64,000 nt of DNA from Nanobdellota archaeon (GTDB taxonomy: Archaea > Nanobdellota > Nanobdellia > Woesearchaeales > JACJVW01), in NCBI GenBank assembly GCA_051819765.1, contig JBNJGT010000001.1, positions 42,716-106,715 of the forward strand, written 5' to 3'. A program made the translations under genes and the position numbers. Below, one piece after another: positions 22,823 to 63,509 of the stretch. The first letter of the stretch is position 1; every line of letters begins with the position of its first letter. Under the pieces are notes generated by a model. That model had not been told where the DNA came from, ran no database searches, and worked only from the letters and a program-made list of their open reading frames with translations.

Positions 22823-25800
22823 ATTCTCTCCGGTTGTAATAGTTTGCAGCAATCACGATACCGATGAGAATCAGGATAAGGGTCGCAAGGATTATGCCAA
22901 TGATTGTAAGCGGTACCTTGTTCCTGTTCAGGTACCCTCTCCATTCGCTCATCTCCTGGGGCTGCTCTATCTGCTGCTCTTTACCGCTGATAAGATACCG
23001 ACAGGTGTCGATGGTCTTTTGCAAGAGTTCCTTTGACTGCTCGGTCTTGCCCTGTTCAATCAGGTCTCGTGCACGGGCTATCTGCTCGTTGAGTTCCAGG
23101 CATTCAGGGTTTGAGGTAAGCAGGTCACGGACAAACTTCACTTCATTCTCCAGACTCTCCCCTTCAAGAGGCGTGATTGATACAAATGCATAGTCCATGA
23201 GTTCAGGGTTCAGGGAATGGGCACTGATATTGATATTGACTGCCTCTGCGTTTTGCCAGGATGCTTCTACCTGGGTCTCCAGGGTTTCCTGGGGGCTGAG
23301 TGTTGCAATGACCTTGTCCTGAAAATTGAATGTGACGTCTTCATTGCTCTGGGCATCAAGGGTGATCTGGTTGAGGGTGATATTCCCTTGGTTCTTCAGT
23401 GTAAGGGGAATTATTACTGAATCGTTATCTGTCTGTATAAGGGGTTGCGGGGTGATGAGCTGGAGGAACTCTGGCTGTGTGACGTTTTCTGTCTCAGGGA
23501 ACGGGACAATGACCCGTCTTATGTCTCCACCTCCTCCTCCTGAGCTTTCGGGAGGTGGCTGGTCATAGGTGTCGAGGACTGTTATGGTTATGTTGTTTGA
23601 TTGGATGCTTGCGTTTTTTGGATCTTGTGCCTCTACCCTGAAACGCGCGATGCCGTACCAGTCTGTTGCCGGAGAAAGGCTGAGCTGGTTTTGCTGGTTG
23701 ATTGATATGCCTAGATTGTCGCTGTTTTGTATGTCTATTATGGAGAAATTGAGGGTGTCTTTGTCCTTGTCTGAGAAATAGTGGTCAAGGTCAATCCAGG
23801 GAGAGATGTCGTATTCCTCTTTCATTATGAAATCCGGGATTCGCATATTGAGGAGAGGTTCGTTGACTGTCGCATTGCTTATGGTGAGTGCGTACTGGAT
23901 GTAACGGTTTTCCCAATGGTACGTCATATTCTGGGTGCGGTTTTCGTCATGGAACAGGCTTTGGTTTGATAGTGGGTCGGACCATGATGACCAGGCATTC
24001 GCGTTGTATGATGTGCGTGCCTGGAGTGTTGCAGCGCTGACCTTGTGGAGCCTTAGTTCGTTCACTTGTATCTGACCTGTGAAATCCAGTTTCATTCGAT
24101 CCATAGGGGTTGGAGGGATGGTAAGGGTCTGGTTGCCGTTGCAGTCTGATGAAAGGAGATGATTGGAAGTGCCATTGAAGGTGTATGTGATGTTGATGGT
24201 TGTAGGTTGTCTTGTTGAGAGTGAAATGTTCCGGATGAAGGTTGGGGTATTGAATGCGATCGAGAGGGTTGCGGGTGAGTCAGCCTCCCAGTAGGTAAGG
24301 TAATTGTCATCATATGTTCTTGAGATGTTGTGGAATGAACTTGTTGTATGTGATGCGGTGCGTTCTCCTATGATCTCAGAGGTGTGGTTCCCTCTGACAC
24401 GGTACTTGATGTTTCGAAAATCCGGCTTTAAAAGATGGGTTGTGTCGTCCAGGGTGTCCTTTGGCTCTGAGATGAATCTTCCTTGCCCCCTGAATGAGTC
24501 GGTATAGGAGGTATTGTAGAAGGTACCATCAATGCCGAGGGGGACCTCTCCGAAAGAGGGTGGGCGGTTTACATCAATGACGGTGATATTCCATAGTACG
24601 TGGTTTGCTGTGACATTGTCAGATACGGTCAGATTGAGGGTGTGTGTGCCTGAGCTGGAATGATTAAAGTATATGGTGAGGTTCTTTGTTGTATGGGAAT
24701 GGTTATCATATATCCAGGTGGTGAGGATGGTGTCATTCTCATTGTCTGAGCTGTTGTGCATGAAGGTTATTGTCGTGTCCTCGGCGGTTGTAAGATTTAT
24801 CCGGGTCTTGTTTGTCCAATTCCCATGATAGACCTCATGGATGATTGGGGGGGTGTTGTTTTCTACCTCTATTGTTATCAGGTTTGAGCTTGTTGTCGCA
24901 ATGGAGTCGTTTGCGACGAATGCGACGGACAGGTTTCCCACGAAGTCGGTTGCAGGAGCGGCTGTGACACGTGATCCATTGAACCAGAGGGTCATGTCTG
25001 TGGTTGGGCTGTGGGTGAAGTTCATTGACTGGTTGCATGCGTCAATCTGGTAGAAATAATCTGTGAGGTCAAGTATCTCTTTGACCTGGTTCTTTTTTAT
25101 TGTGATATTGGGTATGGGCCTGTCAAGTATTGGTGGTATATTATTATTCTGGACTGTGAGGTTCCATGTGAGGCCTGTGGAGAGATTGCCGTCGGAAACG
25201 TTGACGCTTATGTTATACTGGCCTGCTGCGCAGAAATCGGGAGTGAATGACCAGTTCTGCGTTGTTGCTATAGGTTGGTTGTTGATTGTCCAATTGTAGA
25301 AAAGCAGGTCACTATCTGGGTCATGGATCGTAATGTTGAAGTCCTGTGTGGTGTTCTCCTGAATCGTGTGGTTCAGGGGAGGGATGAAGCTTGTTATCTC
25401 AGGCGGCTTACTTACGTTTATTATATGGTACAATGCTTGCTTGTAGGTGGTGTTGATGCCATCGGTCACGCTAAAGTTGAGGGTCAGGTTTCCCGGCTGT
25501 TTGGGTGTGAAGTTGAATGTTCCTATGGTGGTGGCGCCGATCGGCTCTGTTTGTATGGATGAGGAAATGTTGAAAAGCAAAGGTGATACATTGAGTGCGA
25601 GAAGATCTGCGTCCTCGTCATAGGCTTTGATTGTTATCTCATAGGTATGGTCTTCTCGTAATGAATTGCCGCCGGTCTTGTTCTCCAGCAGTGTAAAATA
25701 CGGGATATCGTTCGTGTCGGTGATGTTTATCACAAGCGTTGATGAGTTGATGCCTCCGTAGGGGTCTGAGACGGTGATGTTGAATGGGTGTACACCTACC

Positions 25801-27797
25801 TCTGATTGGTTGGCTGTGAGGTTTATCATGAGGGTGTTGTTTTGTATCCATGAGGATAGGTTGTGAAAGGAAAGGTTGGTTGAGTAGTTGAGTGTGTCAT
25901 CATCTGGGTCGGTTGCCTGTATTGTGAAGTTGCAGGGGTAATCCTCGCGGCAGGTGACTGATTTGTTGCTTATTTGTGGGTTGTGGTTGCTTGTGATATT
26001 GAATATTGCGATTGTTGAATCATTGAATTCACCATCAGAGACGGTGAGGTTAACCTGTACAAGGCTGACATTGTCAGGGGTGAACTGGACGAGCCCCGTG
26101 GACTGGATGTCGAAGAGGGAGGTGTTGTCCCAGTACATGTGGGTGTCATCGATGTCACGGTCTTCTACATATGAGGAAAGGTCACGGCTGAAGCTCGTGT
26201 TCACCCGTGGGTTGAATGTGGGCAAGGGTTGCCATTGGGGGCGGTTATTGATGTCTATTACTTCAAGGTGGAAGGCCTGGTTGTCTCGTGCTCCTTTTGA
26301 ATCTTCGACAGTCACCTGTACTGTATGATTGCCTGTATGGTTGTCCATCAGTTGCACTTCCAAGCGGGCACTGGCGTTTTCTTTATCATCTATCGGTATG
26401 ACATTGATCCATGAGATGTTTGTTGAGAAGGTGAGGTTGTCTTCAGGGTCAAGGTCTGTTGCGTTGACTATGAGCTGGAACAGGTTGCCTTCAGTATCTG
26501 TCTGGTTGTCTATTGGTGAGAGTACAGGGATATTATTCTTTTTGACTTCTATAGACACATTTGTGCAGGTAGTATTGATTGAATCGCTTGCGCAAATGTT
26601 TACAGTGTGGTTCTTTACTTGTGAGGGAGTCGTATTGATGATGCCGTCGGTCGTATTGAATACACTGCTGTTTGAGGTGAATGTATGAGAGTCATGGGGG
26701 TCATTGTCTGTGAGGTAGTCATTGAGATTTAATGTGAAATAGGCGCCTTGCGCTGTTGTCTGGTTGGGAATGGGAAGGAAAACCGGCGGGTTGTTGACGT
26801 TATTTACAGTTATGGTTATGTTGTTTGAATCAGTGGTGGTGTAACTGTCATTTGCCCTGAACCGTATGGTGACATTACCGAACCAGTAATCCTCAGGATT
26901 GATTGAGACTGTGTGGTTTCCCTCTATCGCTATGGTGACATTCACTTCAGGTATTGCGTTGATTACTGAGTAGGTAAGATTATCCTTGTTTGCCCCTGAG
27001 CAGGTAGTATCCGGGTCATTAAAGTAATCCTCCAATACCAAAAAGTCTTCGAGCTGTTCTCCTTCATTAAGAGTGATGTTTGCGATTGGACCATTGAACT
27101 CGGGCTGGCGGTTGCTATTGTTCACTGTTATATCCCAGGTGTAGGTGTCTGACTCGTTTTGGTCGGTTATGTCCACTTCTACTGTGTGGGTTCCTGCGGT
27201 GCAGTGGCCAAAGCCTATGCTGTATAGTCCAGAGGTTGAATTTGTCTTGTTTACGAGAATGTTATTGTGGTACCAGGTAGTCTCAAGGCTGTCCCCCCAG
27301 GGGATGTCAGGGTCTGATAGGGAATAGTTGTATCTGAATTCCTGGGTTGTACCCTCTGTGATGCTGATTGGGGAAAGGGGAGTTACGCCTTTCAGGGCCG
27401 GCGGGTCGTTTACGTTTTGGATCCTAAAGTAGAGCCGTACGGTCTCATACTCTGATGAGGGTCCTGAATCTTCGGCAATAATGTAAATTGTGTAATTTTG
27501 TGGTCCACTTTCGGTTCCGACATCCTCGTTTGTAGGTGTGAAATTCATGATGGCGCTGGTATCATTGTAGCTTTCCAGTTGGAAGGATGGGAATAGTTCG
27601 CTTGCCAGTGCCCCGGCTTCAGTTGTTTTGAAAGTGATAGGGTAATCCTCATCAGGGTCGATCGCCTTGATAAAATAGGGCGGCGTGGGTTGATCTTCAG
27701 TCAGGATGAACCAGTCGTCATCTGCTACGTTCGTGAATTGAGGGGTTGCCCCATAGGCCAATGTTACCAGTAGCAGTATCAGTAGCAGTCGTTTCAT
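22815..27797 (-). CDS. Giant (1660 aa) surface adhesin-like glycoprotein: signal peptide, many cadherin/Ig-like repeats, C-terminal TM anchor
   Basis: N-terminal MKRLLLILLLVTLAYG. Dozens of NxS/T sequons. Repeated '...FTP..V......NLTVSDG' units. C-terminal IIGIILATLILILIGIVIAANYY followed by a short tail. Confidence 0.7.
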   Translation of the reverse strand: MKRLLLILLLVTLAYGATPQFTNVADDDWFILTEDQPTPPYFIKAIDPDEDYPITFKTTEAGALASELFPSFQLESYNDTSAIMNFTPTNEDVGTESGPQNYTIYIIAEDSGPSSEYETVRLYFRIQNVNDPPALKGVTPLSPISITEGTTQEFRYNYSLSDPDIPWGDSLETTWYHNNILVNKTNSTSGLYSIGFGHCTAGTHTVEVDITDQNESDTYTWDITVNNSNRQPEFNGPIANITLNEGEQLEDFLVLEDYFNDPDTTCSGANKDNLTYSVINAIPEVNVTIAIEGNHTVSINPEDYWFGNVTIRFRANDSYTTTDSNNITITVNNVNNPPVFLPIPNQTTAQGAYFTLNLNDYLTDNDPHDSHTFTSNSSVFNTTDGIINTTPSQVKNHTVNICASDSINTTCTNVSIEVKKNNIPVLSPIDNQTDTEGNLFQLIVNATDLDPEDNLTFSTNISWINVIPIDDKENASARLEVQLMDNHTGNHTVQVTVEDSKGARDNQAFHLEVIDINNRPQWQPLPTFNPRVNTSFSRDLSSYVEDRDIDDTHMYWDNTSLFDIQSTGLVQFTPDNVSLVQVNLTVSDGEFNDSTIAIFNITSNHNPQISNKSVTCREDYPCNFTIQATDPDDDTLNYSTNLSFHNLSSWIQNNTLMINLTANQSEVGVHPFNITVSDPYGGINSSTLVINITDTNDIPYFTLLENKTGGNSLREDHTYEITIKAYDEDADLLALNVSPLLFNISSSIQTEPIGATTIGTFNFTPKQPGNLTLNFSVTDGINTTYKQALYHIINVSKPPEITSFIPPLNHTIQENTTQDFNITIHDPDSDLLFYNWTINNQPIATTQNWSFTPDFCAAGQYNISVNVSDGNLSTGLTWNLTVQNNNIPPILDRPIPNITIKKNQVKEILDLTDYFYQIDACNQSMNFTHSPTTDMTLWFNGSRVTAAPATDFVGNLSVAFVANDSIATTSSNLITIEVENNTPPIIHEVYHGNWTNKTRINLTTAEDTTITFMHNSSDNENDTILTTWIYDNHSHTTKNLTIYFNHSSSGTHTLNLTVSDNVTANHVLWNITVIDVNRPPSFGEVPLGIDGTFYNTSYTDSFRGQGRFISEPKDTLDDTTHLLKPDFRNIKYRVRGNHTSEIIGERTASHTTSSFHNISRTYDDNYLTYWEADSPATLSIAFNTPTFIRNISLSTRQPTTINITYTFNGTSNHLLSSDCNGNQTLTIPPTPMDRMKLDFTGQIQVNELRLHKVSAATLQARTSYNANAWSSWSDPLSNQSLFHDENRTQNMTYHWENRYIQYALTISNATVNEPLLNMRIPDFIMKEEYDISPWIDLDHYFSDKDKDTLNFSIIDIQNSDNLGISINQQNQLSLSPATDWYGIARFRVEAQDPKNASIQSNNITITVLDTYDQPPPESSGGGGGDIRRVIVPFPETENVTQPEFLQLITPQPLIQTDNDSVIIPLTLKNQGNITLNQITLDAQSNEDVTFNFQDKVIATLSPQETLETQVEASWQNAEAVNINISAHSLNPELMDYAFVSITPLEGESLENEVKFVRDLLTSNPECLELNEQIARARDLIEQGKTEQSKELLQKTIDTCRYLISGKEQQIEQPQEMSEWRGYLNRNKVPLTIIGIILATLILILIGIVIAANYYNRREFS

Positions 27798-30322
27798 TTT
27801 AGCTGTTCGAACAGGTCACCTATCTTTTTGAAGTATCTCTTTTTCTTCTCAATGTCAGCCTTCTCATATAATGCTGAGAGTTCTTTGTAAAGTTTTCGCG
27901 CCTCATCGAGATGATCGGTTTTCAGGAGTACCTCGATGTGTTCGGCGAGTGTTTCCATCTCATCCTTATCTTTTGCAGTGAGAGCAAGGGTGAGCTCGTG
28001 GTGGAGGTGATCGATGTGTGATTGGTCAATCTCTTTGCCAGCATATTCTATCTCAGACAACTGCTCAAGAAGCCGTTTGATGTGTGTCTGTTTTTCTGGA
28101 GGGAGATCCTTGATCCTTTCTTCCATCTCTTCGTATGTCAGTTGTTCATCTGTGTCAAGCGCTTCCTGGATATGGTCCTTAAAGGTCTTTGAGACATGAT
28201 CAATACTGGGCTGTTTCTTCTCAGGCACGGGCACTTCCTTTATGATTGTCTTTTTGTGGGATATGATCACTGTTCCGATAAGACCTAGAATCATGATTCC
28301 GATCACTGTTGCGATGAGTATCGCGTATTCCTCAATATTGGCTTTGATGACGACTGCGGGTTCTTCCGTGATGCTGCATTTGGGGCAGGGCCCTCCACAG
28401 TCAACTCCTTCTTCTCCCTGGTTTTGCCTGCCATCATCGCATGTTTCACACGGGTCGCATGGCCCTCCGCAATCAACTCCTTCTTCTTCCTGATTTTGCA
28501 TGCCATCATCGCATGTGGGGCATGGTTCGCATGGTCCTCCGCAATCGATACCTTCTTCACCCTGGTTCTTCACCCGGTCATAGCAGGTATAGCATGGCTT
28601 GCATGGCCCTCCGCAATCAATCTCTGTCTCTGCCTGGTCAAGTCGGCCATTCTGGCAGGCAGGGATGTAGGTGCAGCGACGGAATTCAAGCGGTTTTCCT
28701 TCATCGGTTCCACATTCTGCCAGGTCGTAGCAGATTCTGCTGGAGACATTTGACCTGTTACAGTGGCTCCAGTCGCCGCAGAACCACACCGGCTCACAAT
28801 CACCGGACCCGGTTTGGGGCATTGCTCCTCCACCGCCGCCTGCGCCTTCACCAGAGTCTTCACCATCTGAGCCTTCAGTCTGGCCTTGTTCACCTTCAGC
28901 GACTTCAAGGGTTATCCAGTTGCTGGTATCTCTTGCTCCTGCCTGGTCTTGCACATGGAAGCGCACCTCTTCTGTGCCGATCCAGTCACGGGGTTGGGAG
29001 AAGATTGCTTGTGTGTTCTCTTCATCAATAGTGACATCAATGGCATGGAAGGGTGAGGCGTACTCCACTGAGTATGTGAGTGAATCATCCAGGTCTGGGT
29101 CTTCGGTGTAGTCATCGAGTATGAAACCGGCTCGTATCCTGTTCCTTTGCCAGGTCTGATTCGGGAGGGGTCTTGTGAATAGGGGAGGCCTGTTCCTGTC
29201 GAGTACTAGCACCTGCCATCGGTGGATTGCACTATAATGGCCATCACTGACGTTTGCGGTTATGGTATGATTCCCAGCTGAATAATGATTAGTCTCCCAT
29301 ACATATGTGCTTGAGCGGTCTGTATACTCTGAGTCTGTATATGTGGAGAGAAGGCTCGCGCCATCGTACCAGGTGATTGTAAGGTCTTTATCATCCGTGG
29401 GGTCGGCGTTCTCCAGCTCGAAATCACGGTACCGGATGAAAAAGGTCTGGTTGTCGGTCTCATTCACTGTGATATTTGTCTGAGGGGATGCGATCGTGAT
29501 CTCTGGGGGATGGTTCCTGATGGATACATTCACCTCGCCGGGCTTGATCGTCAGGTGGTTCTGGCATTCGCTTCCATCAGTACCATACCATTGCACTGTA
29601 TAAGGGTTGTTGCGGGTGAATGTGTCATCAGTTGTGAGTGGAAGGGTGAAGTTCACAAAGCCGGTGTCCGGTTCTATGGAAAGCTCTGAGTCAAGGGGTT
29701 CAATTGAATAGACGTTGAAGGTGTAATTTGTGGGGCAGTCTTGGATCTGTCTGGTTACGGTCTTGTTAGGGTAGCGTTCGATTATGATTGTGCGGTTAGA
29801 GTCCTGCACCTGTATTATACTCTGGAAGCGTGAGATGTTTTCAGAGAAATGGAAGGTGAGGTTGGCGTGCAGGAGTTTTTTATCAACGGTTACTGGTGTC
29901 TGTTTTGGCACGTTGGTGTCTAGCACAGTCTGGTTTAGACGAATCTCTCGGAGGTTCGCGCTGGTGTCCCAGGAAGGAGTGATGGTGTTGATGCGTGGAG
30001 TCCGTGCGCAGGTGTTTTCTATGGTGAGGTTGACATCTCTTTCATCCATGGTGGTGTTTATCCGCAGGCAGCTTTCCCTGCAATCGGGATCGATAATGTT
30101 CAGGTCGCATTGGTATGATTCTCCCTGGTAGATCATGCCTGGGCAATCGTGCACTATGAGTGGGGGGTGGTTGTAGCAGAGTGAGACTGTGCCAGTGGAG
30201 ACAGCCTTACCAGTAATCAGATGATCCCTGGTGCTTATGATAGTCCAGTTCAGGGTAATGGATGATATCATAAGCGCGATTGCCAGGGCTGCAATCATGT
30301 TGTTTGATATGCGTACTTTCAT
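27794..30322 (-). CDS. Type-I membrane surface protein (842 aa) with Ig-like ectodomain, four tandem Cys-rich 'DCGGPCxPCxTC' repeats, TM helix and cytoplasmic coiled-coil tail
   Basis: Signal/anchor at the N-terminus. Repeats EIDCGGPCKPCYTC / GIDCGGPCEPCPTC / GVDCGGPCDPCETC / GVDCGGPCPKC. TM YAILIATVIGIMILGLIGTVII. K/E-rich C-terminal tail. 4-nt overlap with the giant gene downstream (operon). Confidence 0.7.
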   Translation of the reverse strand: MKVRISNNMIAALAIALMISSITLNWTIISTRDHLITGKAVSTGTVSLCYNHPPLIVHDCPGMIYQGESYQCDLNIIDPDCRESCLRINTTMDERDVNLTIENTCARTPRINTITPSWDTSANLREIRLNQTVLDTNVPKQTPVTVDKKLLHANLTFHFSENISRFQSIIQVQDSNRTIIIERYPNKTVTRQIQDCPTNYTFNVYSIEPLDSELSIEPDTGFVNFTLPLTTDDTFTRNNPYTVQWYGTDGSECQNHLTIKPGEVNVSIRNHPPEITIASPQTNITVNETDNQTFFIRYRDFELENADPTDDKDLTITWYDGASLLSTYTDSEYTDRSSTYVWETNHYSAGNHTITANVSDGHYSAIHRWQVLVLDRNRPPLFTRPLPNQTWQRNRIRAGFILDDYTEDPDLDDSLTYSVEYASPFHAIDVTIDEENTQAIFSQPRDWIGTEEVRFHVQDQAGARDTSNWITLEVAEGEQGQTEGSDGEDSGEGAGGGGGAMPQTGSGDCEPVWFCGDWSHCNRSNVSSRICYDLAECGTDEGKPLEFRRCTYIPACQNGRLDQAETEIDCGGPCKPCYTCYDRVKNQGEEGIDCGGPCEPCPTCDDGMQNQEEEGVDCGGPCDPCETCDDGRQNQGEEGVDCGGPCPKCSITEEPAVVIKANIEEYAILIATVIGIMILGLIGTVIISHKKTIIKEVPVPEKKQPSIDHVSKTFKDHIQEALDTDEQLTYEEMEERIKDLPPEKQTHIKRLLEQLSEIEYAGKEIDQSHIDHLHHELTLALTAKDKDEMETLAEHIEVLLKTDHLDEARKLYKELSALYEKADIEKKKRYFKKIGDLFEQLK
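28380..28650 (-). repeat. Tandem ~75-bp coding repeats (4 units) encoding the Cys-rich DCGGPC motif
   Basis: + strand shows reiterated 'ggccctccgcaatc(a/g)a(c/t)(t/a)cc...catcatcgcatgt' units. Confidence 0.6.
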
Positions 30323-52010: not shown

Positions 52011-53624
52011 TCAGTACATGCCCTGCTGCTGGTTCTCTGAGTCAGAGCTTGCGATGACATCGTCGATCCTGAGAATCATCTCTGCAACTTCTGACGCAGA
52101 GGAGATGGCTTGCTTCTTGACCTTCATGGGCTCGATGACGCCGCCCTTGAAGGCGTCAACCACCTTGCCGGTGAAGACATCGATACCGCCCCACTTCATG
52201 CCATTCTCATGGGCTGCCTTGAGTTCGGTAAGGATATCAATAGGGTCAATCCCTGCGTTCTCGGCAAGGGTCTTTGGGATGATTTCCATCGCATCCGCGA
52301 AGGATTCCACTGCCAGCTGTTCCCTCCCTGAAAGGCTTTCTGCGAATTTTCGAAGGTTGCGGGCGATCTCGATCTCTGGGGCGCCGGCGCCGGCAACAAA
52401 AAATCCTGTGGTGAGTGTTGCGGCCACATCACCGATAGCGTCTTCCATTGCGCGCTTGATCTCATCGACGACATGGTTGGTCGCTCCCTTGATGAGGATA
52501 GTCACGGAGCGCGGGTTCTTACAGTCTTTGACAAAGACCATGTCATCGTCACCCACTTTCACTTCCTCAATTATGCCGGACTGGCCGAGGTCATCAGCTG
52601 AGAGTTCATTGAGATTTGTGACGATCTTTGCGCCGGTAGCTTTGGCAAGAGATATCATGTCACTCTTCTTGACGCGGCGAATGGCGAAAATGCCTCGCTT
52701 TGCAAGGAAATGCTGGGCAATATCGTCGATACCCTTTTGGCAGAGGACAACGTTTGCGCCGGATTCTGCGATGCGCTCAACCATATCCTTTATCATCTTC
52801 TCTTCCTGGTTGACAAAAGCCTCGAGCTGGGAGGGGTCATTGATCTGGATCCGCGTATCGGTCTCAGGGCCCCGCACTTCTATTGGGGTGTCAATCAAGG
52901 CAAGCTTTGCATTCTTTATGACGCGAGGCATGCCTGAATGAACCCGCTCCTTGTCAAGCACAATACCTTCAATAAGGTTTGACTCTTCGATGGACCCGCC
53001 AACCTTTGTCACGACGTTGATGTCGTTTTTTGAATAGTAGATTGATTCATCAGTTTTCTCGATGACGCTTTGGACTGCTTTTACCGCAATGTCTGCCAGG
53101 ATGTCCTTTGAGGCTTCGGCGCCTTTTCCGGTCATGGCAGTTGTTGCGATCTGCCGCAGGATTGTGGAATCCTTTTCCTTCACCGGTTCAGAGATATCTT
53201 TAAGGACCCTCAGGGCCTTTTCTGTTGCCATGCGGTAGCCTTTTGCAATGATTGTCGGATGGACGTTCGAATCAAGCAGTTTCTCGGCATTCTTGAGGAG
53301 CTCGCCTGCGAGGACCACTGCAGTGGTTGTGCCATCCCCTATCTCTGATTCCTGTGTCTTTGCCACTTCAACAATCATTTTTGCGCTGGGCTGCTCGATT
53401 GACATCTCGTTTAAGATAGTGACTCCGTCGTTTGTAATGGTGATGTCGCCGATGTTGTCAACAAGCATCTTGTCCATCCCCTTGGGCCCAAGGGTGGTGC
53501 GGACGGTCTCTGCTACCATCTTTGCAGCTTCGATGTTCGTCTTTTGGGCATTCTTGCCCTGTGTTCGTTGTGTTCCTTCCGGAAGAATGAATATTGGTTG
53601 TTGATTGTTAGACACTTCCCTCAC
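52011..53624 (-). CDS. ths: Thermosome subunit (group II chaperonin)
   Basis: 537 aa. ...[14 protein letters not shown]..., [15 protein letters not shown], the apical domain, and the C-terminal ...IDDVIAS.. tail. Confidence 0.95.
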
Positions 53625-54468: not shown

Positions 54469-54744
54469 ATGCTAAAGATGAAAAATATTACTGATACCTT
54501 TGATATGAAGGTTTTTACTGATAGTGGTGAGTACTTCGGTGACATTGAGGAATCAATACTCACCCAGACCAAAGTCTTTGGATGGCGGGTCAAGGCGACC
54601 AAGAATTCCTATCTTTCCAAGGTACTTGGGAATGCGAAGGGAGTTATCGTTCCCCACCAGCTTGTAAAAGCCATCGGCGATATCATGCTCATAAGCAAGG
54701 CTGCGGTTCCGTCGTATAACCCGGAATCGAATGATTACGAATAA
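54469..54744 (+). CDS. PRC-barrel domain protein
   Basis: 91 aa of beta-rich sequence (...VFTDSGEYFGDIEESILTQTKVFGWRVKA...KGVIVPHQLVKAIGDIMLI). Overlaps the queH start by 14 nt. Confidence 0.45.
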   Translation: MLKMKNITDTFDMKVFTDSGEYFGDIEESILTQTKVFGWRVKATKNSYLSKVLGNAKGVIVPHQLVKAIGDIMLISKAAVPSYNPESNDYE

Positions 54745-55252
54745 GCTATTGCATGTGTGTTGTGCTTCCTGTGCGCTCGTTGCGTTGGAGCGTTGGGATG
54801 GCCTTTCTCTTTTCTTCTATAATCCTTCTATACCTCCTGGGGAGTATGATGCGCGTTTTTCTGATGTGAAACTGGTTGCCCTGCGGTATGGGGTGGAGCT
54901 TGTGCCCGCGCCGTATGATCACCAGGCGTGGCTTGATCGCGTTTTTGGGCTGGAGGGTGAGCCTGAGAATGGCAGGCGCTGCCTTTTGTGTTACCGGGAC
55001 CGGCTGGAGAAGACCTATGAGATGGCGGTGAATAAGTTTGATGCCTTTGCGACGACATTGACTCTAAGCCCCCACAAGAACGCAGAAATCATCAACCGCA
55101 TCGGGAAGGAGGTCGGTGGTGACCTGTACCTTGAGAGTAACTTCAAAAAGCAGGCCGGGTATGATCTCAGTGTACGTCTGAGCAAAGAGATGGGCTTGTA
55201 CCGTCAGAGTTTTTGCGGCTGCGAGATGAGCATGCAGTCTCCCAGTGAATAG
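54731..55252 (+). CDS. queH: Epoxyqueuosine reductase QueH (DUF208)
   Basis: LLHVCCASCA near the N-terminus, FFYNPSIPPGEY, a conserved Cys pattern (..GRRCLLCY.., FCGCE) and about 170-aa length. Confidence 0.7.
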   Translation: MITNKLLHVCCASCALVALERWDGLSLFFYNPSIPPGEYDARFSDVKLVALRYGVELVPAPYDHQAWLDRVFGLEGEPENGRRCLLCYRDRLEKTYEMAVNKFDAFATTLTLSPHKNAEIINRIGKEVGGDLYLESNFKKQAGYDLSVRLSKEMGLYRQSFCGCEMSMQSPSE

Positions 55253-56181
55253 AATCTGTACTTCTTTTGGATGGCATGGTGGTAGGCTTCAAATACTTTC
55301 TCTTTTCCTATGAATGCGCTGATGAGGAGTAGCAGGGTTGATTTTGGAAGGTGGAAGTTGGTGAGGAAGCCCTGGGGATGTACCCTGAACTGGTAGCCTG
55401 GCTTGATGAAGAGGTCTGAGTAGCCTTCATAGGGGTGGATAATCCCATTGCTGTCAGCAGCTGTCTCCAGGGATTTCATGGTGGTGGTCCCGACCACAAA
55501 CAGACGGCCCTTGCGGTTGTTGATCTGGTCAGCGGTCTCTTTGGTGATTGTTATGTATTCGGGTTCCATCTGATGGGTCGCAAGGTCATAGACCTTGTTG
55601 AAGGTGCCATAGCCAACGTGGAGGCAGACGGAGGCGAATTGGATGCCTTTCTGTCTGAGTTCTTGAATGAGGTTCCTTGTGAAATGGAGGCCTGCAGTGG
55701 GGGCGGCAAGGGAGCCGGGGTTGTTGGCATAGACAGTCTGGTATTCGGATTCGTCATGAAGCTCTCCTGTGATATAGGGTGGGGTGGGGAGCAATCCTTC
55801 GAGTGGTTCTTTCCGGAATTCGAGAAGGAAGGTGTCCTTTTCTTTCTTTCTGATGGTTGCCTTTGTATCCGTGAAGATAAGGGTGTTTCCGACCCGTGGT
55901 TTCCCTTTGATGCGGCAACGGTGTAGATTCCCTTCCTGTTGCATGAGCATGACTTCTACTGGGCTTCCAGTCTCTTTTTTGCCGAGAAGGCGCGCTCTTT
56001 TGACTTTGGTGTCGTTGATGACGATGAGGTCATCCTTTCTCAGATAGTCTTTTATCTGATAGAACCGTTTGTCTGTGAGCCTTTTAGAGAGTACCAACAT
56101 GCGTGAGTAGCTTTTGGGCTTTGCTGGTTCTTGGGCAATGAGTGCCGGGGGCAGGTGGTAGTCAAACTCCTCAAGCTTCAT
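55204..56181 (-). CDS. queA: S-adenosylmethionine:tRNA ribosyltransferase-isomerase QueA
   Basis: MKLEEFDYHLPPALIAQEPAKP..., RLFVVGTTTMKSLE, GYSDLFIKPGYQFRVHPQGFLTNFHLPKSTLLLLISAF, 325 aa. Confidence 0.85.
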   Translation of the reverse strand: MKLEEFDYHLPPALIAQEPAKPKSYSRMLVLSKRLTDKRFYQIKDYLRKDDLIVINDTKVKRARLLGKKETGSPVEVMLMQQEGNLHRCRIKGKPRVGNTLIFTDTKATIRKKEKDTFLLEFRKEPLEGLLPTPPYITGELHDESEYQTVYANNPGSLAAPTAGLHFTRNLIQELRQKGIQFASVCLHVGYGTFNKVYDLATHQMEPEYITITKETADQINNRKGRLFVVGTTTMKSLETAADSNGIIHPYEGYSDLFIKPGYQFRVHPQGFLTNFHLPKSTLLLLISAFIGKEKVFEAYHHAIQKKYRFYSLGDCMLISQPQKL

Positions 56182-56809: not shown

Positions 56810-58312
56810 TTATTCTGTGAAACCTTGTACCATGAACTGGCAGAGCTTTGGCAGGAGTTCCTTTCGGGGGATGCGCACCTGCTTTGTGCTGTCACGGTCA
56901 CGCAGGGTGATGTCATCGTTTTCCACGCTCTCGAAATCGATGGTGATGCAGAACGGTGTTCCGATCTCATCCTGGCGGGCGTAGCGCTTGCCGATGGAGC
57001 CAGATTTATCATATGTGCAGTTGAATTCCCGCTTCAATTCGTCAAAGATGTCCCGGGCCATCCTGGTGAGCGGTTCCTTATTCATGAGCGGAAATACTGC
57101 GCATTTGATCGGTGCAAGCTCAGGTTTTAGTTTGAGGACGATGTTGCCTCGTTCCTTATCATCATTGAATGCGTCAACGAGTGTTGCAAGAAAGACCCGG
57201 TCCATCCCAAAGGTTGGTTCAATGACCCGGGGCACCACTTTCTGTTTGCTGTCCTCGTCGAAAAGGTCCAGTTTCTGCTTACTCTCGTTCATGTGCTGGG
57301 TGAGGTCATACTGGCCACGGTTGGCATTACCGGCCACTTCCTTTGATCCGAACGGGAAACTGTAATCCATGTCGAAGGTTGCTGAAGAGTAATGGGAGAG
57401 CTCGTCCGTCGTGTGTTCGCGCACCTTGAAATTGTTCAGGTCAAGCCCCATGCTTTTGAACCAGTTGATCTGTTCAGCGAGCCAGTAGGCATGCCATTCG
57501 CCAAGGCGCTTTTCCTTGAGAAGCTGCCGTATGGTGGTCTGGGTGAGTTGGTTCTCGTTTTTCTCCTGGCTTTCGGCACTGAGGAAATTGAATTGTGTGT
57601 CCAGGGCCTTATCTGTCAGATTCTCACATTCCTCGACCTCTGGGTGTAGGAAGAACTCGAACTCTCCGATGGTGAATTCTCTGCATCGGAATATGAAATC
57701 CCGGGGAGATATCTCATTCCGGAAGCATTTCCCGATCTGGCCGATGCCGAAGGGTAATTTCATGCGCTGGGACTCGGCGATGAGCTTGAAGTCGGTGAAC
57801 ATCCCTTGTGCGGTCTCTCCTCTGAGATATGCCTCTGAGGCCTTGTCCTCGTCAGCACCGACGTGGGTCTTGAAGAGGAGGTTGAAGTTTTTGAGTTCGC
57901 CGAACTGGCCGCCACAGTCAGGACAGGCAAGGTTGTTTTCCTGGATGATCTGGTTTATCTTTTCAATCTCCATACCTTCCACATTCATGTCCAGCTTGTC
58001 CTCGATGAGGTGGTCAGCCCTATATTTCTTCTTGCATTTGGTGCAGGCGATAAGCAGGTCTCCGAAGGAATCCAAGTGGCCAGAGGCCTTCCAGACTCGA
58101 GGATGGGATATTATGCTTGCGTCAAGGCCTACCATGTTCTCCTGGGAATGGATAAAGGTCTTCCACCAGTGTTGCTTGATATTGTTGAAGAGTTCTACTC
58201 CAAGGGGGCCGTAGTCCCAGAATCCGGCGATGCCGCCATAAATCTCGGAGCTTTGGAAGATAAACCCTTTCTGCTTGCAGAATGTTGATATTTTCTCGAT
58301 TGTCAGGTCCAT
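56810..58312 (-). CDS. glyS: Glycyl-tRNA synthetase (archaeal/eukaryotic alpha2 type)
   Basis: MDLTIEKISTFCKQKGFIFQSSEIYGGIAGFWDYGPLG, class II motifs ...FRNEISPRDF... and ...GQYDL.., and the C-terminal anticodon-binding domain. 500 aa. Confidence 0.95.
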   Translation of the reverse strand: MDLTIEKISTFCKQKGFIFQSSEIYGGIAGFWDYGPLGVELFNNIKQHWWKTFIHSQENMVGLDASIISHPRVWKASGHLDSFGDLLIACTKCKKKYRADHLIEDKLDMNVEGMEIEKINQIIQENNLACPDCGGQFGELKNFNLLFKTHVGADEDKASEAYLRGETAQGMFTDFKLIAESQRMKLPFGIGQIGKCFRNEISPRDFIFRCREFTIGEFEFFLHPEVEECENLTDKALDTQFNFLSAESQEKNENQLTQTTIRQLLKEKRLGEWHAYWLAEQINWFKSMGLDLNNFKVREHTTDELSHYSSATFDMDYSFPFGSKEVAGNANRGQYDLTQHMNESKQKLDLFDEDSKQKVVPRVIEPTFGMDRVFLATLVDAFNDDKERGNIVLKLKPELAPIKCAVFPLMNKEPLTRMARDIFDELKREFNCTYDKSGSIGKRYARQDEIGTPFCITIDFESVENDDITLRDRDSTKQVRIPRKELLPKLCQFMVQGFTE

Positions 58313-58385
58313 TGTGTATCCCTTTTATGTGGTAGTCTTGTACATATATAAATTCTTTGGAGAAGTCGCGTGTCTCCTTGGAGTG

Positions 58386-59990
58386 ATGACTCGCATAAGA
58401 TTTATAAGAACACTGTCGCTCCTTTCGGTCATGGAGCCGTATCGGGTCTTTGTTCATCTTGCAGGGTACAACAAGAAATCCCATGCTCAGGCAGACCAGT
58501 CAGGATTGTTGGGGTTGCTCGATTCAGTCCGGCTGGAGCGGACCAAAGTGTACCTGAAAAGGTGGCTGGTCAAACAGAGTTATGGTGAGAACCTGATAGA
58601 TGAGGAGAACAAGGCACTCAAGCCGATCGATGATTCTGGAAAGCGTGCGATCCACCCTGGCCTTGAGGCAGTGGCAGGTCTTGGTAATAGTCATAGCGTC
58701 ATTGTCGGTGACAGGAGTTCATTGGAATCAGTGATTGATGATGAGGTCATCGAACAAGGTGACCATTTCCTTGAAAACCTGGATTTGGGCTATCAACGTG
58801 CGGTTGCCCGTCGGGAAGAACTCCTCTCCCAAGGAGCTCAGGTATCGGATCATATCTATTTCCTGTTTGGGGATGTGTTTGCTGCAACAACAGATGCTAT
58901 CAAACACTTTGCTGATAGGGTTGAAGAACATGATGCAGATTTGAGTGTGGGCATCTGCCTGCGACAGGAGAACGGGGTGGATGATGGGCGTCGGTATTTC
59001 AATATCCGGCCATGGGTCAAGTTTGCTGACGCAGAATTTCGAAACTCAAACATCGGGGCTCTGAGAGTGCCGACTGAGACACGTGGGATTCCGCGTGAGC
59101 GGTATTTCTTGTTTTCAGCAGGCTATACCCTTCGGAAGCTCAAGAATCCTCTTAATCTGGCATTGCTTGGAAAAAACATGGTCACACCCAACTCCCAGAA
59201 TGTGGGTGACTATCCTATTGATGGGAAAAGTCTCTACATAGCTTCTTCTGGTCTCCTGAAAACCTATGCGCAGGATTTCCTGGGTAAGTTCAATCCTTCG
59301 TGGAAGCCAACTCTTGCGGGCGTTGAAGCGATCCTGAATCGTAGTTTCGAAACAGAGGACAAAGCCCCTACTATCTCTTTTCTCCCGGCTGATTGTTGCC
59401 TGGAGCCGGACATCGATTCGCGGAAGGATGAGGAGCGGGCCCGGAAGCTGGTTGCTGTCTCTCGACTTCAGGATGTGACCTATGAGGATTGCCTGTCCAT
59501 GTATGGGCAATGCGAGGATGTTGGTTGTAAATTTGTGCGGTTGGTGGGGACTGATATGAACCGCCGGGTCTTTGGGATGCGTACCAATAGCTCACGGGGC
59601 AAGAAGGATTATCGTCTGCCGCTCTCTAAAGTGCAGCGGGAACTGGATACAATCGCTCAGGAGCCGACCAAATCGCTGTATTTTCATCCTCATATGCCTC
59701 CGGAGACCAATTATTTGGCTGACTTGTATCATGATATGCAGCGGGCATATGCCATCAGGGTCTCGGACAATCAGTCAATCATCATGAGTGTGCTTCGGGA
59801 AACGACGCAAAAGCTTGGCACTACAGATTTTTCCTCTTTATCTGTCCAACCTCTTACCGGTGCAGAAAGACGTGTGCTTTACCGCTCAGTCGCAAAGATC
59901 AACCAGGTTGAAGGGCTTTCTTTTGGGGGGGCAAAGTATGATTCTGCCCGGGCAGATGCCATAGTGCGGCGCTATTTGGAAAACATTTAA
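58386..59990 (+). CDS. Large hypothetical protein (about 535 aa); start placed after the divergent glyS start
   Basis: The track ORF begins at 58275 but would overlap the glyS 5' end. ATG 58386 (MTRIRFIRTL) follows GGAG. No motif recognised (..FHPHMPPETNY..). Confidence 0.45.
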   Translation: MTRIRFIRTLSLLSVMEPYRVFVHLAGYNKKSHAQADQSGLLGLLDSVRLERTKVYLKRWLVKQSYGENLIDEENKALKPIDDSGKRAIHPGLEAVAGLGNSHSVIVGDRSSLESVIDDEVIEQGDHFLENLDLGYQRAVARREELLSQGAQVSDHIYFLFGDVFAATTDAIKHFADRVEEHDADLSVGICLRQENGVDDGRRYFNIRPWVKFADAEFRNSNIGALRVPTETRGIPRERYFLFSAGYTLRKLKNPLNLALLGKNMVTPNSQNVGDYPIDGKSLYIASSGLLKTYAQDFLGKFNPSWKPTLAGVEAILNRSFETEDKAPTISFLPADCCLEPDIDSRKDEERARKLVAVSRLQDVTYEDCLSMYGQCEDVGCKFVRLVGTDMNRRVFGMRTNSSRGKKDYRLPLSKVQRELDTIAQEPTKSLYFHPHMPPETNYLADLYHDMQRAYAIRVSDNQSIIMSVLRETTQKLGTTDFSSLSVQPLTGAERRVLYRSVAKINQVEGLSFGGAKYDSARADAIVRRYLENI

Positions 59991-60026: not shown

Positions 60027-60434
60027 ATGACAATAGTGGGTTTCAATTTTACAAAGATGCATGTTGAGCGTAAGTCACAGGTCAGTGGCAAGGTGAATAT
60101 CACAAATAATGTCTCTATCAAGTCAGTTGAGGAATCTCAACTGTCTTTGGGTCCGAACAAGCAGACCGGCCTGAAATTTGGCTTTGAGTTTGTGACCAAG
60201 TATGAGCCAGGTATCGGTGAGATCCTTCTGACTGGTGAGGTACTGACCATTGAGCAGGATGAAAAGCATAAGGCCATTCTTGCGGAGTGGGAAGCTGAAG
60301 AGAAAGTCAACAAGGAGACTATGACCAAGATTCTGAACCACGTGCTCAAAAAGTCCAATCTGGAGGCACTGATACTGAGCCGGGAGATCAATCTGCCGTC
60401 GCCTATACCCCTTCCTAAGGTACAGGACAAGTAG
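60027..60434 (+). CDS. Hypothetical beta-rich protein (135 aa) immediately upstream of cdc48
   Basis: ATG 60027 preceded by GGGGTGGTG. MTIVGFNFTKMHVERKSQVSGKVNITNNVSIKSVEE.... 39-nt gap to cdc48. Confidence 0.45.
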   Translation: MTIVGFNFTKMHVERKSQVSGKVNITNNVSIKSVEESQLSLGPNKQTGLKFGFEFVTKYEPGIGEILLTGEVLTIEQDEKHKAILAEWEAEEKVNKETMTKILNHVLKKSNLEALILSREINLPSPIPLPKVQDK

Positions 60435-60473
60435 TCGAAACTTTTATTAGCTTACCAATATTTTTTCTTACTT

Positions 60474-63400
60474 ATGACTCAGGAAATCAAGTTAAAAGTA
60501 GCCGAAGCGGTTCAGGATGATGTGAATAAGGGGCTTGTGCGGATAGATTCAGCGGTAATGCGAGACCTGGGTCTACGACCGGGGGATCCTATCGAAATCT
60601 ATGGGGAACGTACGACTGTCGCAACTGTTGAGCGTGCGTATCCTGGAGACATTGGCCTGAATATCATCAGGATGGATGGTCTCTTGAGACGGAATGCCAA
60701 GACAGGTATCGGTGAGTATGTCACGTTGAATCCGGCAGATGTGAAGGAAGCAAAGAAGGTAGTGATTGCGCCTGCCCGAAAGGATATCGTTGTCAAGGCT
60801 GATCCTGTCTTTTTCAGGCGGGGACTCCATAATCGTGTTGTCCTGACAGGAGATATCATCTCTATTGGTGGAAGACGCCGGACGCGCAAAGGGACTTATT
60901 CGGGTTCACCATTCTTTGATGATATTGTTGAGCTCTTTGATGAGGGCATGATGAGCAGTTTCGGTTTCTCTGATATCAAGTTCATTGTGGTTGATACCCA
61001 GCCAAAGCAGGCTGTGCGGATCACTGACATGACAGAGATAGTATTCAATCCTGAAGCCAAAGAGGCTGAGGAGGAACATGACGTACCAGAGGTAACCTAT
61101 GAGGATATAGGAGGCCTGCAGGACGAGATCAAAAAGATCCGTGAGATGATTGAGCTTCCGATCAAACATCCTGAGGTTTTTGACCGGTTAGGGATCGAGC
61201 CGCCAAAAGGAGTCCTTTTGCATGGGTCACCTGGTGCGGGTAAGACCCTGCTTGCAAAGGCAGTTGCTAATGAGACCAAGTCCCATTTCATTGTCATCAA
61301 TGGGCCTGAGATCATGTCCAAATTCTATGGGCAGTCAGAAGAGAACCTCCGGAAGAAGTTCGAGGAGGCTGAGGCAAATGCACCTGCGATCATCTTTATC
61401 GATGAGATCGATGCGATCGCTTCCAAGCGTGAAGAGACGCATGGTGAGGTGGAAAAGCGGGTAGTGGCACAGCTTCTTGCGATCATGGACGGGTTGAAGA
61501 GCCGCGGGAAGGTTGTGGTGATCGCGGCAACAAATATCCCGAATTCCATCGATCCGGCGCTTCGCCGGCCTGGTCGGTTTGATCGTGAGATTGAGATAGG
61601 GGTTCCAAAAGAGCATGACAGACTTGAGATTCTCAAGGTCCACACACGGAATATGCCGCTGAATCCGCCTTTTGATAGTTCGATCGCACGAAAAAGCATC
61701 AAGGATTATGTGGACAAACTCAATTCCGATATTGTCGGGTATGATAAAGAGCTCAAGAATATCTCTGAGGAACTTGAGAAGCGTGAGGAAGAACTCAAGA
61801 ATGTTGAGGTGCAGCTAGAACGCCAGGATTACTCTAACACCCAGAACCTCTATCGGGAGAAGAAACGATTGCGTGATCGCATAGAGAATATGAAGGAGCG
61901 GCAGCGTCAGAAATCAGCTGAGCTCAAGACTGCGCAGACCAAGATTGATGAGGTTGAGGCAATCAAAGGAGAGATTGAGGATGCGATCAAATCGTCTGAC
62001 CCTGAACGTGAGTTGTTTGGTCTTAATTATGTTGACCTCAAGAGTCTGGCTGATATCACCCTGAATTATATCCTCTCTGAGGTCAAGAAAAAGTTCCGGG
62101 ACCAGGACCGTCACATCGAGGGCTTGGATGAGGTGCGGGGAATCCGTGACCTTAAGGAGAATGTGTTGAATCAGCTTGAAGCTGATGATCCTCGTTCAAA
62201 ACTGATTCATGAGACTCTCTCTGAGGTCAATTTCGATCTTGACAACTTCAGGTTTTCACGATCCGGTCTTCAAAAGATCGTTCCTTCAATCAAAGATAAG
62301 AAGCTAAAGAGTTTCCTTGAACGCGTCCTCAAATCCAAAGATGATGAGGAAGTGAACTCACGGATCTCTGCAAGCTGGATGAGTGATGAACTCAAAGAGC
62401 GAGTGCGTGTTGAGCTGGTTGAAGATATGCTGACCTGGGTTGCGAAGAAGACTCACGGGTTTGTGGGTGCAGACCTTGCATCGCTTTCCAAAGAATCGGC
62501 TATGATTGTTCTTCGGCGAATCATATCTGATATGGGTTCGCTCGAGGAGGGGGATATCTCAAAGTACCTTGACAAACTGAATATCTCCATCACTGATTTC
62601 AAGGAGGCGCTCAAGTTTGTCCGGCCAAGCGCAATGCGTGAGGTGTTGGTTGAGATCCCCAAGGTCAACTGGAACCTTATTGGGGGGCTTTCTGATGTGA
62701 AGCAGGAACTCAAAGAAGCAGTGGAGTGGCCGCTCAAATATCCAAAGGTCTTCAATAAGATGGGGATTCGTGCACCAAAGGGTGTTCTCATCTATGGTCC
62801 ACCAGGAACAGGTAAGACCTTGCTTGCAAAGGCTGCGGCCAATGAGGCTGAATCAAATTTCATCCTTGTGAAGGGTCCAGAAATGCTTTCCAAATGGGTT
62901 GGAGAGAGCGAGAAGGCTGTTCGCCAGATCTTTGAGAAGGGGCGCCAGACTGCGCCGACTATCATCTTCTTTGATGAGATCGACTCTATCGCGCCACGAC
63001 GTGGAGCTGGTGGTGACTCCAATGTCACCGAGCGGGTGGTCAACCAGCTCTTGACTGAGATTGATGGGCTTGAAGAGCTCAATGATGTGGTTATCATCGC
63101 TGCGACAAATCGGCCTGATATCGTTGATACTGCCTTGCTTCGGCCGGGACGGTTTGATCGGATCATCCTTGCAAGCACTCCTGACAAGGCTGCCAGGGAA
63201 GAGATCTTTAAGGTGCATACGCGGGGGATGCCTCTTGAGAAAGGTGTGAGTCTTTCCACCCTTGCGGGACGGACCCAAGGGTATGCTGGCTCAGATATCG
63301 AGGCGGTCTGCCGTGAAGCTGCAATCTTTGCATTGCGTGAGTCCATCAAGGCAAAGAAAGTGAAACAATCACATTTTGATGAGGCCCTAAAGAAGGTTCC

Positions 63401-63509
63401 ACCCTCTATCACAAAAGAGATTGAGGAATCTTATGAGGGCATGAAGCACCAGTTCTCCAGTGCTCAAGGCAAAGAAATGCGACAACAGAGGCCAGCATAT
63501 TTCGGTTAG
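60474..63509 (+). CDS. Cdc48/VCP-like AAA+ ATPase (N domain plus D1 plus D2) with a ~270-aa coiled-coil insertion in the D1 helical subdomain
   Basis: N-domain ...[19 protein letters not shown].... D1 Walker [16 protein letters not shown] and D2 Walker [19 protein letters not shown] motifs. 1011 aa versus about 740 typical. The insertion lies between HTRNMPL and [12 protein letters not shown] and is rich in E/K/R heptads. Confidence 0.9.

Follow-up and report, generated by a model that had tools for sequence, protein, structure and literature searches.

A lineage-specific helical insertion in the D1 lid of a woesearchaeal Cdc48 and the conserved small gene of predicted SecB-like fold in front of it

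Here we describe, from a window of 64,000 nucleotides (nt; the whole stretch of DNA that was analysed, contig JBNJGT010000001.1 of assembly GCA_051819765.1), a Cdc48 gene whose product of 1011 amino acids (aa) carries a lineage-specific in-frame insertion of ~251–255 residues in the lid of its first ATPase ring (D1), together with the small gene directly upstream, which encodes a protein with a predicted SecB-like fold. The source organism is a woesearchaeon (phylum Nanobdellota, DPANN), described as a tiny archaeon of the symbiotic type. Large insertions homologous to it occur, in frame and at exactly this position, in six or more independent assemblies that come from different studies, and the small gene is kept beside Cdc48 in most of the related loci, irrespective of whether the ATPase carries an insertion. 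As the best reading of these data we regard the insertion as a peripheral regulatory or docking arm and the small protein as a holdase-type partner of Cdc48, a proposal that we hold tentatively and at slightly less than even confidence. The features on which the argument depends are listed below, with coordinates of the window and open reading frame abbreviated as ORF.

60027..60434 (+): small conserved gene, 135 aa, predicted SecB-like fold, proline-rich tail LPxPIPLPK
60435..60473 (+): 39-nt spacer between the two ORFs, with a TATA-like TTTTATTA centred ~28 nt upstream of the Cdc48 ATG (sequence)
60474..63509 (+): CDC48/VAT-type double-ring AAA+ ATPase, 1011 aa, ATG start (Pfam, NCBIfam, phmmer)
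60474..61073 (+): N domain (CDC48_N and CDC48_2) with an extra loop of ~25 aa, aa 134–164 (Pfam, gap in the VAT alignment, orthologues)
61224..61655 (+): D1 core motifs, namely Walker A GSPGAGKT (aa 251–258), pore loop KFYGQ (283–287) and Walker B IIFIDEID (306–313), and within the same interval the arginine fingers RRPGRFDRE (364–372) and the end of lid helix alpha5, HTRNM (390–394)
61665..62429 (+): lineage-specific in-frame insertion, aa 398–652, in the alpha5/alpha6 loop of the D1 lid (VAT alignment, orthologue spacing)
61677..61988 (+): predicted antiparallel coiled-coil hairpin, helices aa 402–450 and 457–505, length variable among homologues (AlphaFold2 (AF2), heptads)
61998..62423 (+): conserved, predicted all-helical module, aa ~509–650, with DPERxLFGLxYVDLK, FxF..GL..I(L)P, LKxYL and SASWxSxELKE (alignment, AF2)
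62430..62477 (+): resumption of the D1 lid with helix alpha6 and the GFVGADL motif, aa 662–668 (VAT alignment, motif reading)
62796..63161 (+): D2 core motifs, namely Walker A GPPGTGKT (aa 775–782) and pore loop KWVGE (807–811), and within the same interval Walker B IIFFDEID (830–837) and the arginine fingers LRPGRFDR (889–896)
63498..63506 (+): C-terminal Y-F-G, fitting the HbYX pattern (sequence)

Apart from the insertion the protein is a conventional member of its family. Pfam identifies CDC48_N (PF02359, 1.2e-24, aa 6–89) and CDC48_2 (PF02933, 1.2e-06, aa 111–194), the double-psi barrel and the beta-clam of the N domain, followed by two matches each to AAA (PF00004) and AAA_lid_3 (PF17862), which correspond to two full AAA modules with their lids, each with Walker A, Walker B and the arginine fingers of the second region of homology. 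The NCBIfam CDC48 profile TIGR01243, for which the curated cutoff is 802.65 bits, gives 1021.7 bits in a single stretch (protein 5–994 against profile 2–729 of 733) with a surplus of ~260 residues on the side of the protein. Using phmmer against the PDB sequences, the VAT protein of Thermoplasma (5g4f) is found first (E 4e-219), the aligned regions being visibly highly conserved. The order N, D1, D2 and C-terminal tail with an HbYX-type end is that of VAT (5g4f/5vc7) and p97/Cdc48, whereas the Walker A motif of D1 reads GSPGAGKT and not GPPGTGKT as in these proteins. Both pore loops are aromatic (KFYG in D1, KWVG in D2), a pattern described for archaeal, translocation-competent Cdc48 (PMC5543420). 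Thus the preliminary description was right in stating that all canonical Cdc48 elements are present: the enzyme is intact, with all catalytic and translocation motifs, and every feature defining CDC48/VAT proteins that was tested was found. The protein ends with PAYFG and so fits the pattern [LVIMGAPFYW][FY]x, which has been used to predict archaeal AAA proteins that dock on the proteasome (PMC3493965), and the HbYX-like tail might enable this Cdc48 to dock on the 20S proteasome as well. The extra loop of ~25 residues in the N domain (window 60873..60965, aa 134–164) does not occur in VAT, but every woesearchaeal orthologue examined has conserved it, possibly as a lineage-specific docking site.

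The insertion lies between HTRNMPL (aa 390–396) and THGFVGADL (aa 660–668), just where the preliminary description had placed it. In the alignment to VAT, residues 164–397 pair with VAT 144–377 and residues 653–988 with VAT 387–721, which leaves 255 residues (398–652) of the woesearchaeal protein where VAT has 9 (378–386) and p97 is similarly short. An independent measure is the distance from HT(R)NM to GFVGADL in D1, which has a baseline of 21 residues in p97 and in insert-free orthologues and is 272 here, an excess of 251. The length is therefore ~251–255 aa and not the ~270 residues first estimated. We applied the same measure to the downstream Cdc48 of 80 species-level GTDB loci, which had been fetched via alignment of the 135-aa protein, and to a second sample of the 120 closest Cdc48s from a search with the full-length protein. 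In the first sample, L001 and L002 (~90% identical proteins from other studies) have 251 and 250 extra residues and L003 has 235, while the other loci show 120–123, 88–94, 70–80, 10 or none; in the second, P0121–P0125 and P0183 have 226–265. The identity of these inserts to that of the window is ~79% for L001, ~77% for L002 and 35–46% for L003/P0125, P0122, P0123 and P0124. The insert is therefore not unique to the genome of the window and represents one member of a graded woesearchaeal series.

Comparison of the window with L001 shows how strongly the insert is constrained. As synonymous sites are saturated (pS > 0.75) and dN/dS is undefined, the proportions of nonsynonymous (pN) and synonymous (pS) differences are given instead. 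For the whole insert pN is 0.132 and pS 0.789, for the hairpin 0.184 and 0.78, for the helical module 0.093 and 0.80, and for Cdc48 outside the insert 0.047 and 0.759. As pN is far below pS, the insert is clearly under purifying selection.

The fold of the insert was predicted with AF2 for the isolated insert, using an alignment of the large-insert class as input, and resulted in a mean predicted local distance difference test (pLDDT) of 84.3 and a predicted TM-score (pTM) of 0.66. The model comprises two helices of 49 residues with a short turn between them, then eight shorter helices and a tiny beta-hairpin. Positions a and d of the heptads in the two long helices are 79% and 71% hydrophobic, in comparison to 14% elsewhere. 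The hairpin accounts for ~100 aa (2 x 49) and the helical module for the remaining ~140 aa, or ~55% of the insert. Accordingly, the heptad-repeat coiled coil that had been proposed for the entire insertion holds for aa ~402–505, and aa ~510–650 appear as a globular module of several helices. The alignment of the large class has the same layout, with a conserved entry (L/I)xPPFD, a stretch of variable length which contains all indels, and ~140 conserved residues at the C-terminal end.

Searches for relatives of the insert outside Cdc48 gave only two marginal coiled-coil matches (HMMER, 1.84 billion cluster representatives); these representatives are clustered at 50% identity and insert-bearing Cdc48s are presumably hidden behind insert-free ones. 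Pfam (E <= 10), PHROGs and PADLOC returned for the insert and for Cdc48 only sub-threshold coiled-coil or generic AAA matches. A query with the insert only against a word index of 5.8 billion proteins found nothing, and this was a false negative: the full-length query recovered P0121–P0125 with their homologous inserts, so that inserts ~79% (P0121) and 35–46% (P0122–P0125) identical had been missed and negatives of this index are unreliable for queries rich in coiled coil. At the level of sequence the searches point to an insert that has no relatives in other protein families. Structurally, Foldseek aligns the hairpin with the tower of LSD1 over 90 positions at 1.6 A. The tower is an antiparallel coiled-coil hairpin of ~90 aa within the catalytic domain of a different host enzyme and docks CoREST. 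Similarly, the beta-domain of Vps4 is inserted in the small AAA subdomain and recruits the cofactor Vta1; it has a different fold and resembles the candidate arm as an inserted docking element. Both are analogies only.

How the arm is oriented in the hexamer was derived from p97 numbering only. As residues 7–399 align with p97 26–393, N393 is equivalent to p97 N387, a disease site on the surface of D1 at its interface with the N-terminal domain, opposite R155; a disulfide between R155C and N387C holds the N domain in its 'down' position (PMC5102582). The insert begins four residues past N393. From this position the arm is expected to leave the D1 ring at its rim, next to the docked N domain. 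Together with the modelled hairpin of 2 x 49 aa this makes the projecting coiled coil of the preliminary description plausible. In ClpC and ClpB a coiled coil interrupts AAA-1 at the junction of its large and small subdomains and lies at the periphery of the ring, where it represses the ATPase and binds MecA or Hsp70 (PMC5699869). The hairpin at aa 402–505 also sits in the first of the two AAA modules of its unfoldase, and of the systems compared it is these coiled-coil middle domains (M-domains) of the Hsp100 proteins (ClpB, Hsp104, ClpC) that the insert would most resemble in its way of working. The likeness is a positional analogy: the host belongs to the classic AAA clade and not to Hsp100/HCLR, no homology was found, and the hairpin is followed by a helical module of 140 aa that has no counterpart in the M-domain, so that the insert is no member of this family. 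By this analogy the arm would be a regulatory and/or docking element beside the N-D1 interface, and it might tune the up and down movement of the N domain and the ATPase activity of D1. Alternatively it could serve as a binding platform for a client or a cofactor.

In woesearchaeal Cdc48s the loop between alpha5 and alpha6 of the D1 lid is a hot spot for insertions. From the 120 closest Cdc48s 40 hold 72–265 aa at this site, and the sizes form a series of 0, ~10, 72–96, 105–178 and 226–267 aa which is the same in the 80 GTDB species loci. An all-against-all BLAST of 58 inserts separated at least five groups (~74–78, 83–96, 105–178, ~132 and 226–267 aa) without matches between them; through a common C-terminal segment of the SASW type, the insert of L006/P0206 (122 aa) is linked to the 226–267-aa group. 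In a rough neighbour-joining tree of the ATPase only, with the insert masked, the large-insert proteins (window, P0121–P0125) form one clade, and proteins of the other insert classes are dispersed between those without an insert. This scattering and the unrelated insert families speak for a permissive loop on the surface at which inserts were gained, lost and expanded repeatedly, with at least one lineage having fixed and conserved a large structured module. The corresponding loop of the D2 lid has ~45–47 extra residues in L013, L029, L031, L042, L053, L066 and L067; the alpha5/alpha6 site is thus expandable in both rings.

Such a distribution could also be expected if the insert were a neutral or near-neutral decoration, that is, helical low-complexity sequence which accretes and is lost at a permissive loop and has no function other than not disturbing the hexamer. 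The continuum of lengths, the number of BLAST-unrelated families, the scatter of insert-bearing orthologues over the tree and the +45 aa in the equivalent D2 loop of some orthologues all agree with this, as does an insert sequence that is an orphan outside Cdc48 and a hairpin with many indels and the highest pN. Conservation is harder to explain in this way. The pN is ~6-fold below pS in the insert and ~8-fold in the helical module, DPERxLFGLxYVDLK and SASWxSxELKE are kept where the inserts are only 35–46% identical, and the insert is retained throughout the large-insert clade; moreover AF2 predicts a confident, ordered structure and not disorder. We consider neutral decoration unlikely, though of the alternatives to a regulatory or docking arm it is the one that we rate highest.

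For the small gene, the predicted structure consists of four long antiparallel beta-strands followed by two helices, in agreement with the beta-rich protein encoded 39 nt upstream that had been noted before. A four-stranded antiparallel sheet packed against two helices is the SecB fold, and the predicted fold of the small protein is of this kind. Its start is the ATG; a GTG four codons further upstream is unsupported, as the homologues all begin with MTIVGF. There are 216 of these homologues, all annotated as hypothetical, all from Woesearchaeota or Nanoarchaeota and 44–86% identical, and their tail INLPxPIPLPK hardly varies. One NCBI protein, from a 'Nanobdellota archaeon', matches the small protein with 100% identity. 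No match was found in Pfam or NCBIfam even at E <= 10, a profile of 28 homologues found no SecB among the PDB sequences, and PHROGs and PADLOC gave nothing above threshold. In comparison to SecB and SecB-like proteins (5jtl from E. coli, Rv1957 (5mtw) from M. tuberculosis, gbs1413 (2o2a)) the protein is 6% identical and PF02556 is unmatched; it is furthermore archaeal, has Cdc48 as its genomic partner instead of SecA or a toxin–antitoxin pair, and bears the distinctive LPxPIPLPK tail. To our knowledge archaea have no SecA. On the basis of the model, the small protein would work most like the SecB and SecB-like holdases, of which it is no member by sequence.

Its proximity to Cdc48 was analysed in 75 informative loci, the remaining 5 of the 80 being too short to judge. 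Cdc48 follows within less than 300 nt on the same strand in 56 of the 75 and within 4 kilobases (kb) in 63, the spacers in orthologous loci being mostly 20–250 nt. Cdc48 is the downstream family in 61/75 loci. In the upstream direction, which served as the control, no family within 3 kb is found in more than 13/71 loci, and GlyRS, the upstream neighbour in the window, is common only to L001 and L002 (2/80). As upstream neighbours are scrambled while Cdc48 stays downstream, the adjacency is specifically maintained. Cdc48s that lack the insert are paired with the small gene just as well, for example in L004 and L037, so that the small protein is a candidate partner of Cdc48 in general and not of the coiled coil. 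Of the earlier suggestion that the upstream gene encodes an adaptor, the conserved neighbourhood stands and the specificity for the coiled coil does not. As a holdase-type partner the SecB-fold protein could present unfolded or aggregation-prone polypeptides to Cdc48 or receive them from it, and such a partnership would be independent of the insert.

Next to this pair, an ORF of ~534–571 aa (58275/58386..59990, +) is located in a 1.67-kb segment (58303..59973) between glyRS and the SecB-like gene and has no match in Pfam, NCBIfam, PHROGs or PADLOC. The segment is missing from the two closest genomes, L001 and L002, in which only ~85–140 nt separate the genes, as it is from every one of the 80 related loci, and it looks like a strain-specific insertion. 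The 571-aa ORF was rejected as a conserved operon member for this reason.

It could also be that the small gene is functionally unrelated to Cdc48 and that the two are neighbours by ancestral synteny, with the product acting for example as a general holdase or as a toxin–antitoxin-like chaperone similar to Rv1957. As an explanation of the small gene alone, it is compatible with the alternatives for the insert. It would agree with the ~10/75 informative loci that have no Cdc48 within 1.3–7 kb downstream and with a spacer that may hold its own promoter. Bacterial SecB-like proteins work, as far as we know, with SecA or antitoxins and not with AAA+ unfoldases, which we also count in its favour. 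Against it, the adjacency is kept in 56/75 loci although the small proteins diverge down to ~44% identity, the best upstream family reaches 13/71 and GlyRS 2/80, and no toxin or antitoxin genes lie beside the small gene in the window. We regard a mere neighbourhood as rather improbable.

A third possibility is that the arm is an assembly or localisation device, in which coiled-coil contacts between hexamers or with a membrane or cytoskeletal element store or position Cdc48. A long amphipathic hairpin with heptad periodicity would be suited for this, and in ClpC inactive complexes are assembled head to head through the M-domains (PMC5699869). Neither a transmembrane nor a lipid-binding feature was found, however, and no partner gene that co-varies with the insert. 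We hold this explanation to be quite unlikely. An artefact or a mobile element, finally, is effectively refuted: a frameshift-fused neighbour or an assembly chimera, which the preliminary description had itself named as the outcome that would undo it, does not agree with one uninterrupted reading frame, a single stretch of the TIGR01243 hidden Markov model spanning both sides of the insert, the in-frame homologous inserts at the same position in independent assemblies (L001, L002, L003, P0121–P0125), GC content similar to the flanks, no tandem DNA repeats found beneath the coiled coil, no Pfam domain of another family in the insert and purifying selection (pN 0.13 against pS 0.79), and an intein is ruled out as the insert, predicted to be essentially all-alpha, starts with NPPFD and ends with VEDM|LTW, without an N-terminal Cys/Ser or a C-terminal His-Asn, and has no Pfam match to a Hint/intein domain. 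Nothing speaks for this explanation in the gene of the window itself; other woesearchaeal Cdc48s do hold intein-sized blocks of ~450–500 aa, but in the P-loop region.

These blocks are an observation of their own. L008, L023, L032, L054, L011 (D1), L049 (D2) and L007 are Cdc48 orthologues of 960–1900 aa that owe their length to blocks in the AAA core, ~130–950 aa in size (mostly ~450–500) and located near residue ~285 of D1 or its equivalent in D2. They are probably inteins and separate from the lid insertion. In P0126 (Candidatus Nanopusillus sp., 1081 aa) the whole D1 module is exactly duplicated, which results in three AAA modules; the third module may be genuine or may be an artefact of the assembly.

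Several points weigh against a peripheral regulatory or docking arm with a holdase-type partner. The functions proposed for the arm and for the small protein are both inferred, and all interactions are candidates. The inserts differ greatly in length and sequence and were apparently gained or lost repeatedly, which would be expected of a permissive loop no less than of a tuned regulator. The rate of evolution is ~4 times higher in the hairpin than in the ATPase core, and no structural analogue of the helical module pointing to an activity was found. The likeness to SecB is given at the level of predicted structure, with neither sequence nor profile support. The TATA-like TTTTATTA in the spacer may provide Cdc48 with its own promoter, from which a leaderless mRNA would start, and due to this box co-transcription is not assured, so the two genes are possibly transcribed separately. 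A bolder version of the proposal would combine both parts: in Woesearchaeota a relay of holdase and unfoldase, with the SecB-fold protein as a cofactor docking via its LPxPIPLPK tail, and in one clade a D1 arm similar to the Hsp100 M-domain which evolved convergently and gates the N domain or the ATPase. In this full form it appears doubtful to us.

Substrate selection by archaeal Cdc48/VAT is little understood, and a neighbour with a SecB fold, present across a whole archaeal order, is a concrete candidate partner. Literature searches returned no description of the Cdc48 insert or of a pairing between SecB and Cdc48, and no archaeal counterpart of the eukaryotic Cdc48 N-domain cofactors. We also know of no such counterpart. 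Were the partnership true, an archaeal Cdc48 would for the first time have a dedicated cofactor assigned to it, namely the SecB-fold protein. The graded series of 0–267 aa in the D1 lid can furthermore be seen as a natural experiment on how an AAA+ ring of the classic clade acquires a peripheral coiled coil at the N-D1 interface, a region that controls activity in the disease mutants of human p97 and at whose analogous position the Hsp100 disaggregases have their regulatory M-domains. Should the arm be regulatory, motor control would have evolved convergently; should it not be, the permissive site might be useful for engineering tagged or scaffolded Cdc48 rings.

The window also contains some features apart from the Cdc48 locus. 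A gene of this archaeal genome (18698..20992, +) encodes a protein of 764 aa that combines two peptidoglycan-binding domains with a lytic transglycosylase domain (SLT), which suggests an activity on bacterial cell walls. The repeats in the ORF of 1660 aa at 22815..27797 (-), which are of the Big_9, PKD and cadherin-like types, give it the look of a giant surface protein; it adjoins an ORF of 842 aa without a Pfam match (27794..30322, -). Queuosine genes of the bacterial type are present as well in this archaeon, with QueH at 54731..55252 (+) and QueA at 55204..56181 (-), and near to them the gene of a thermosome subunit (52011..53624, -).

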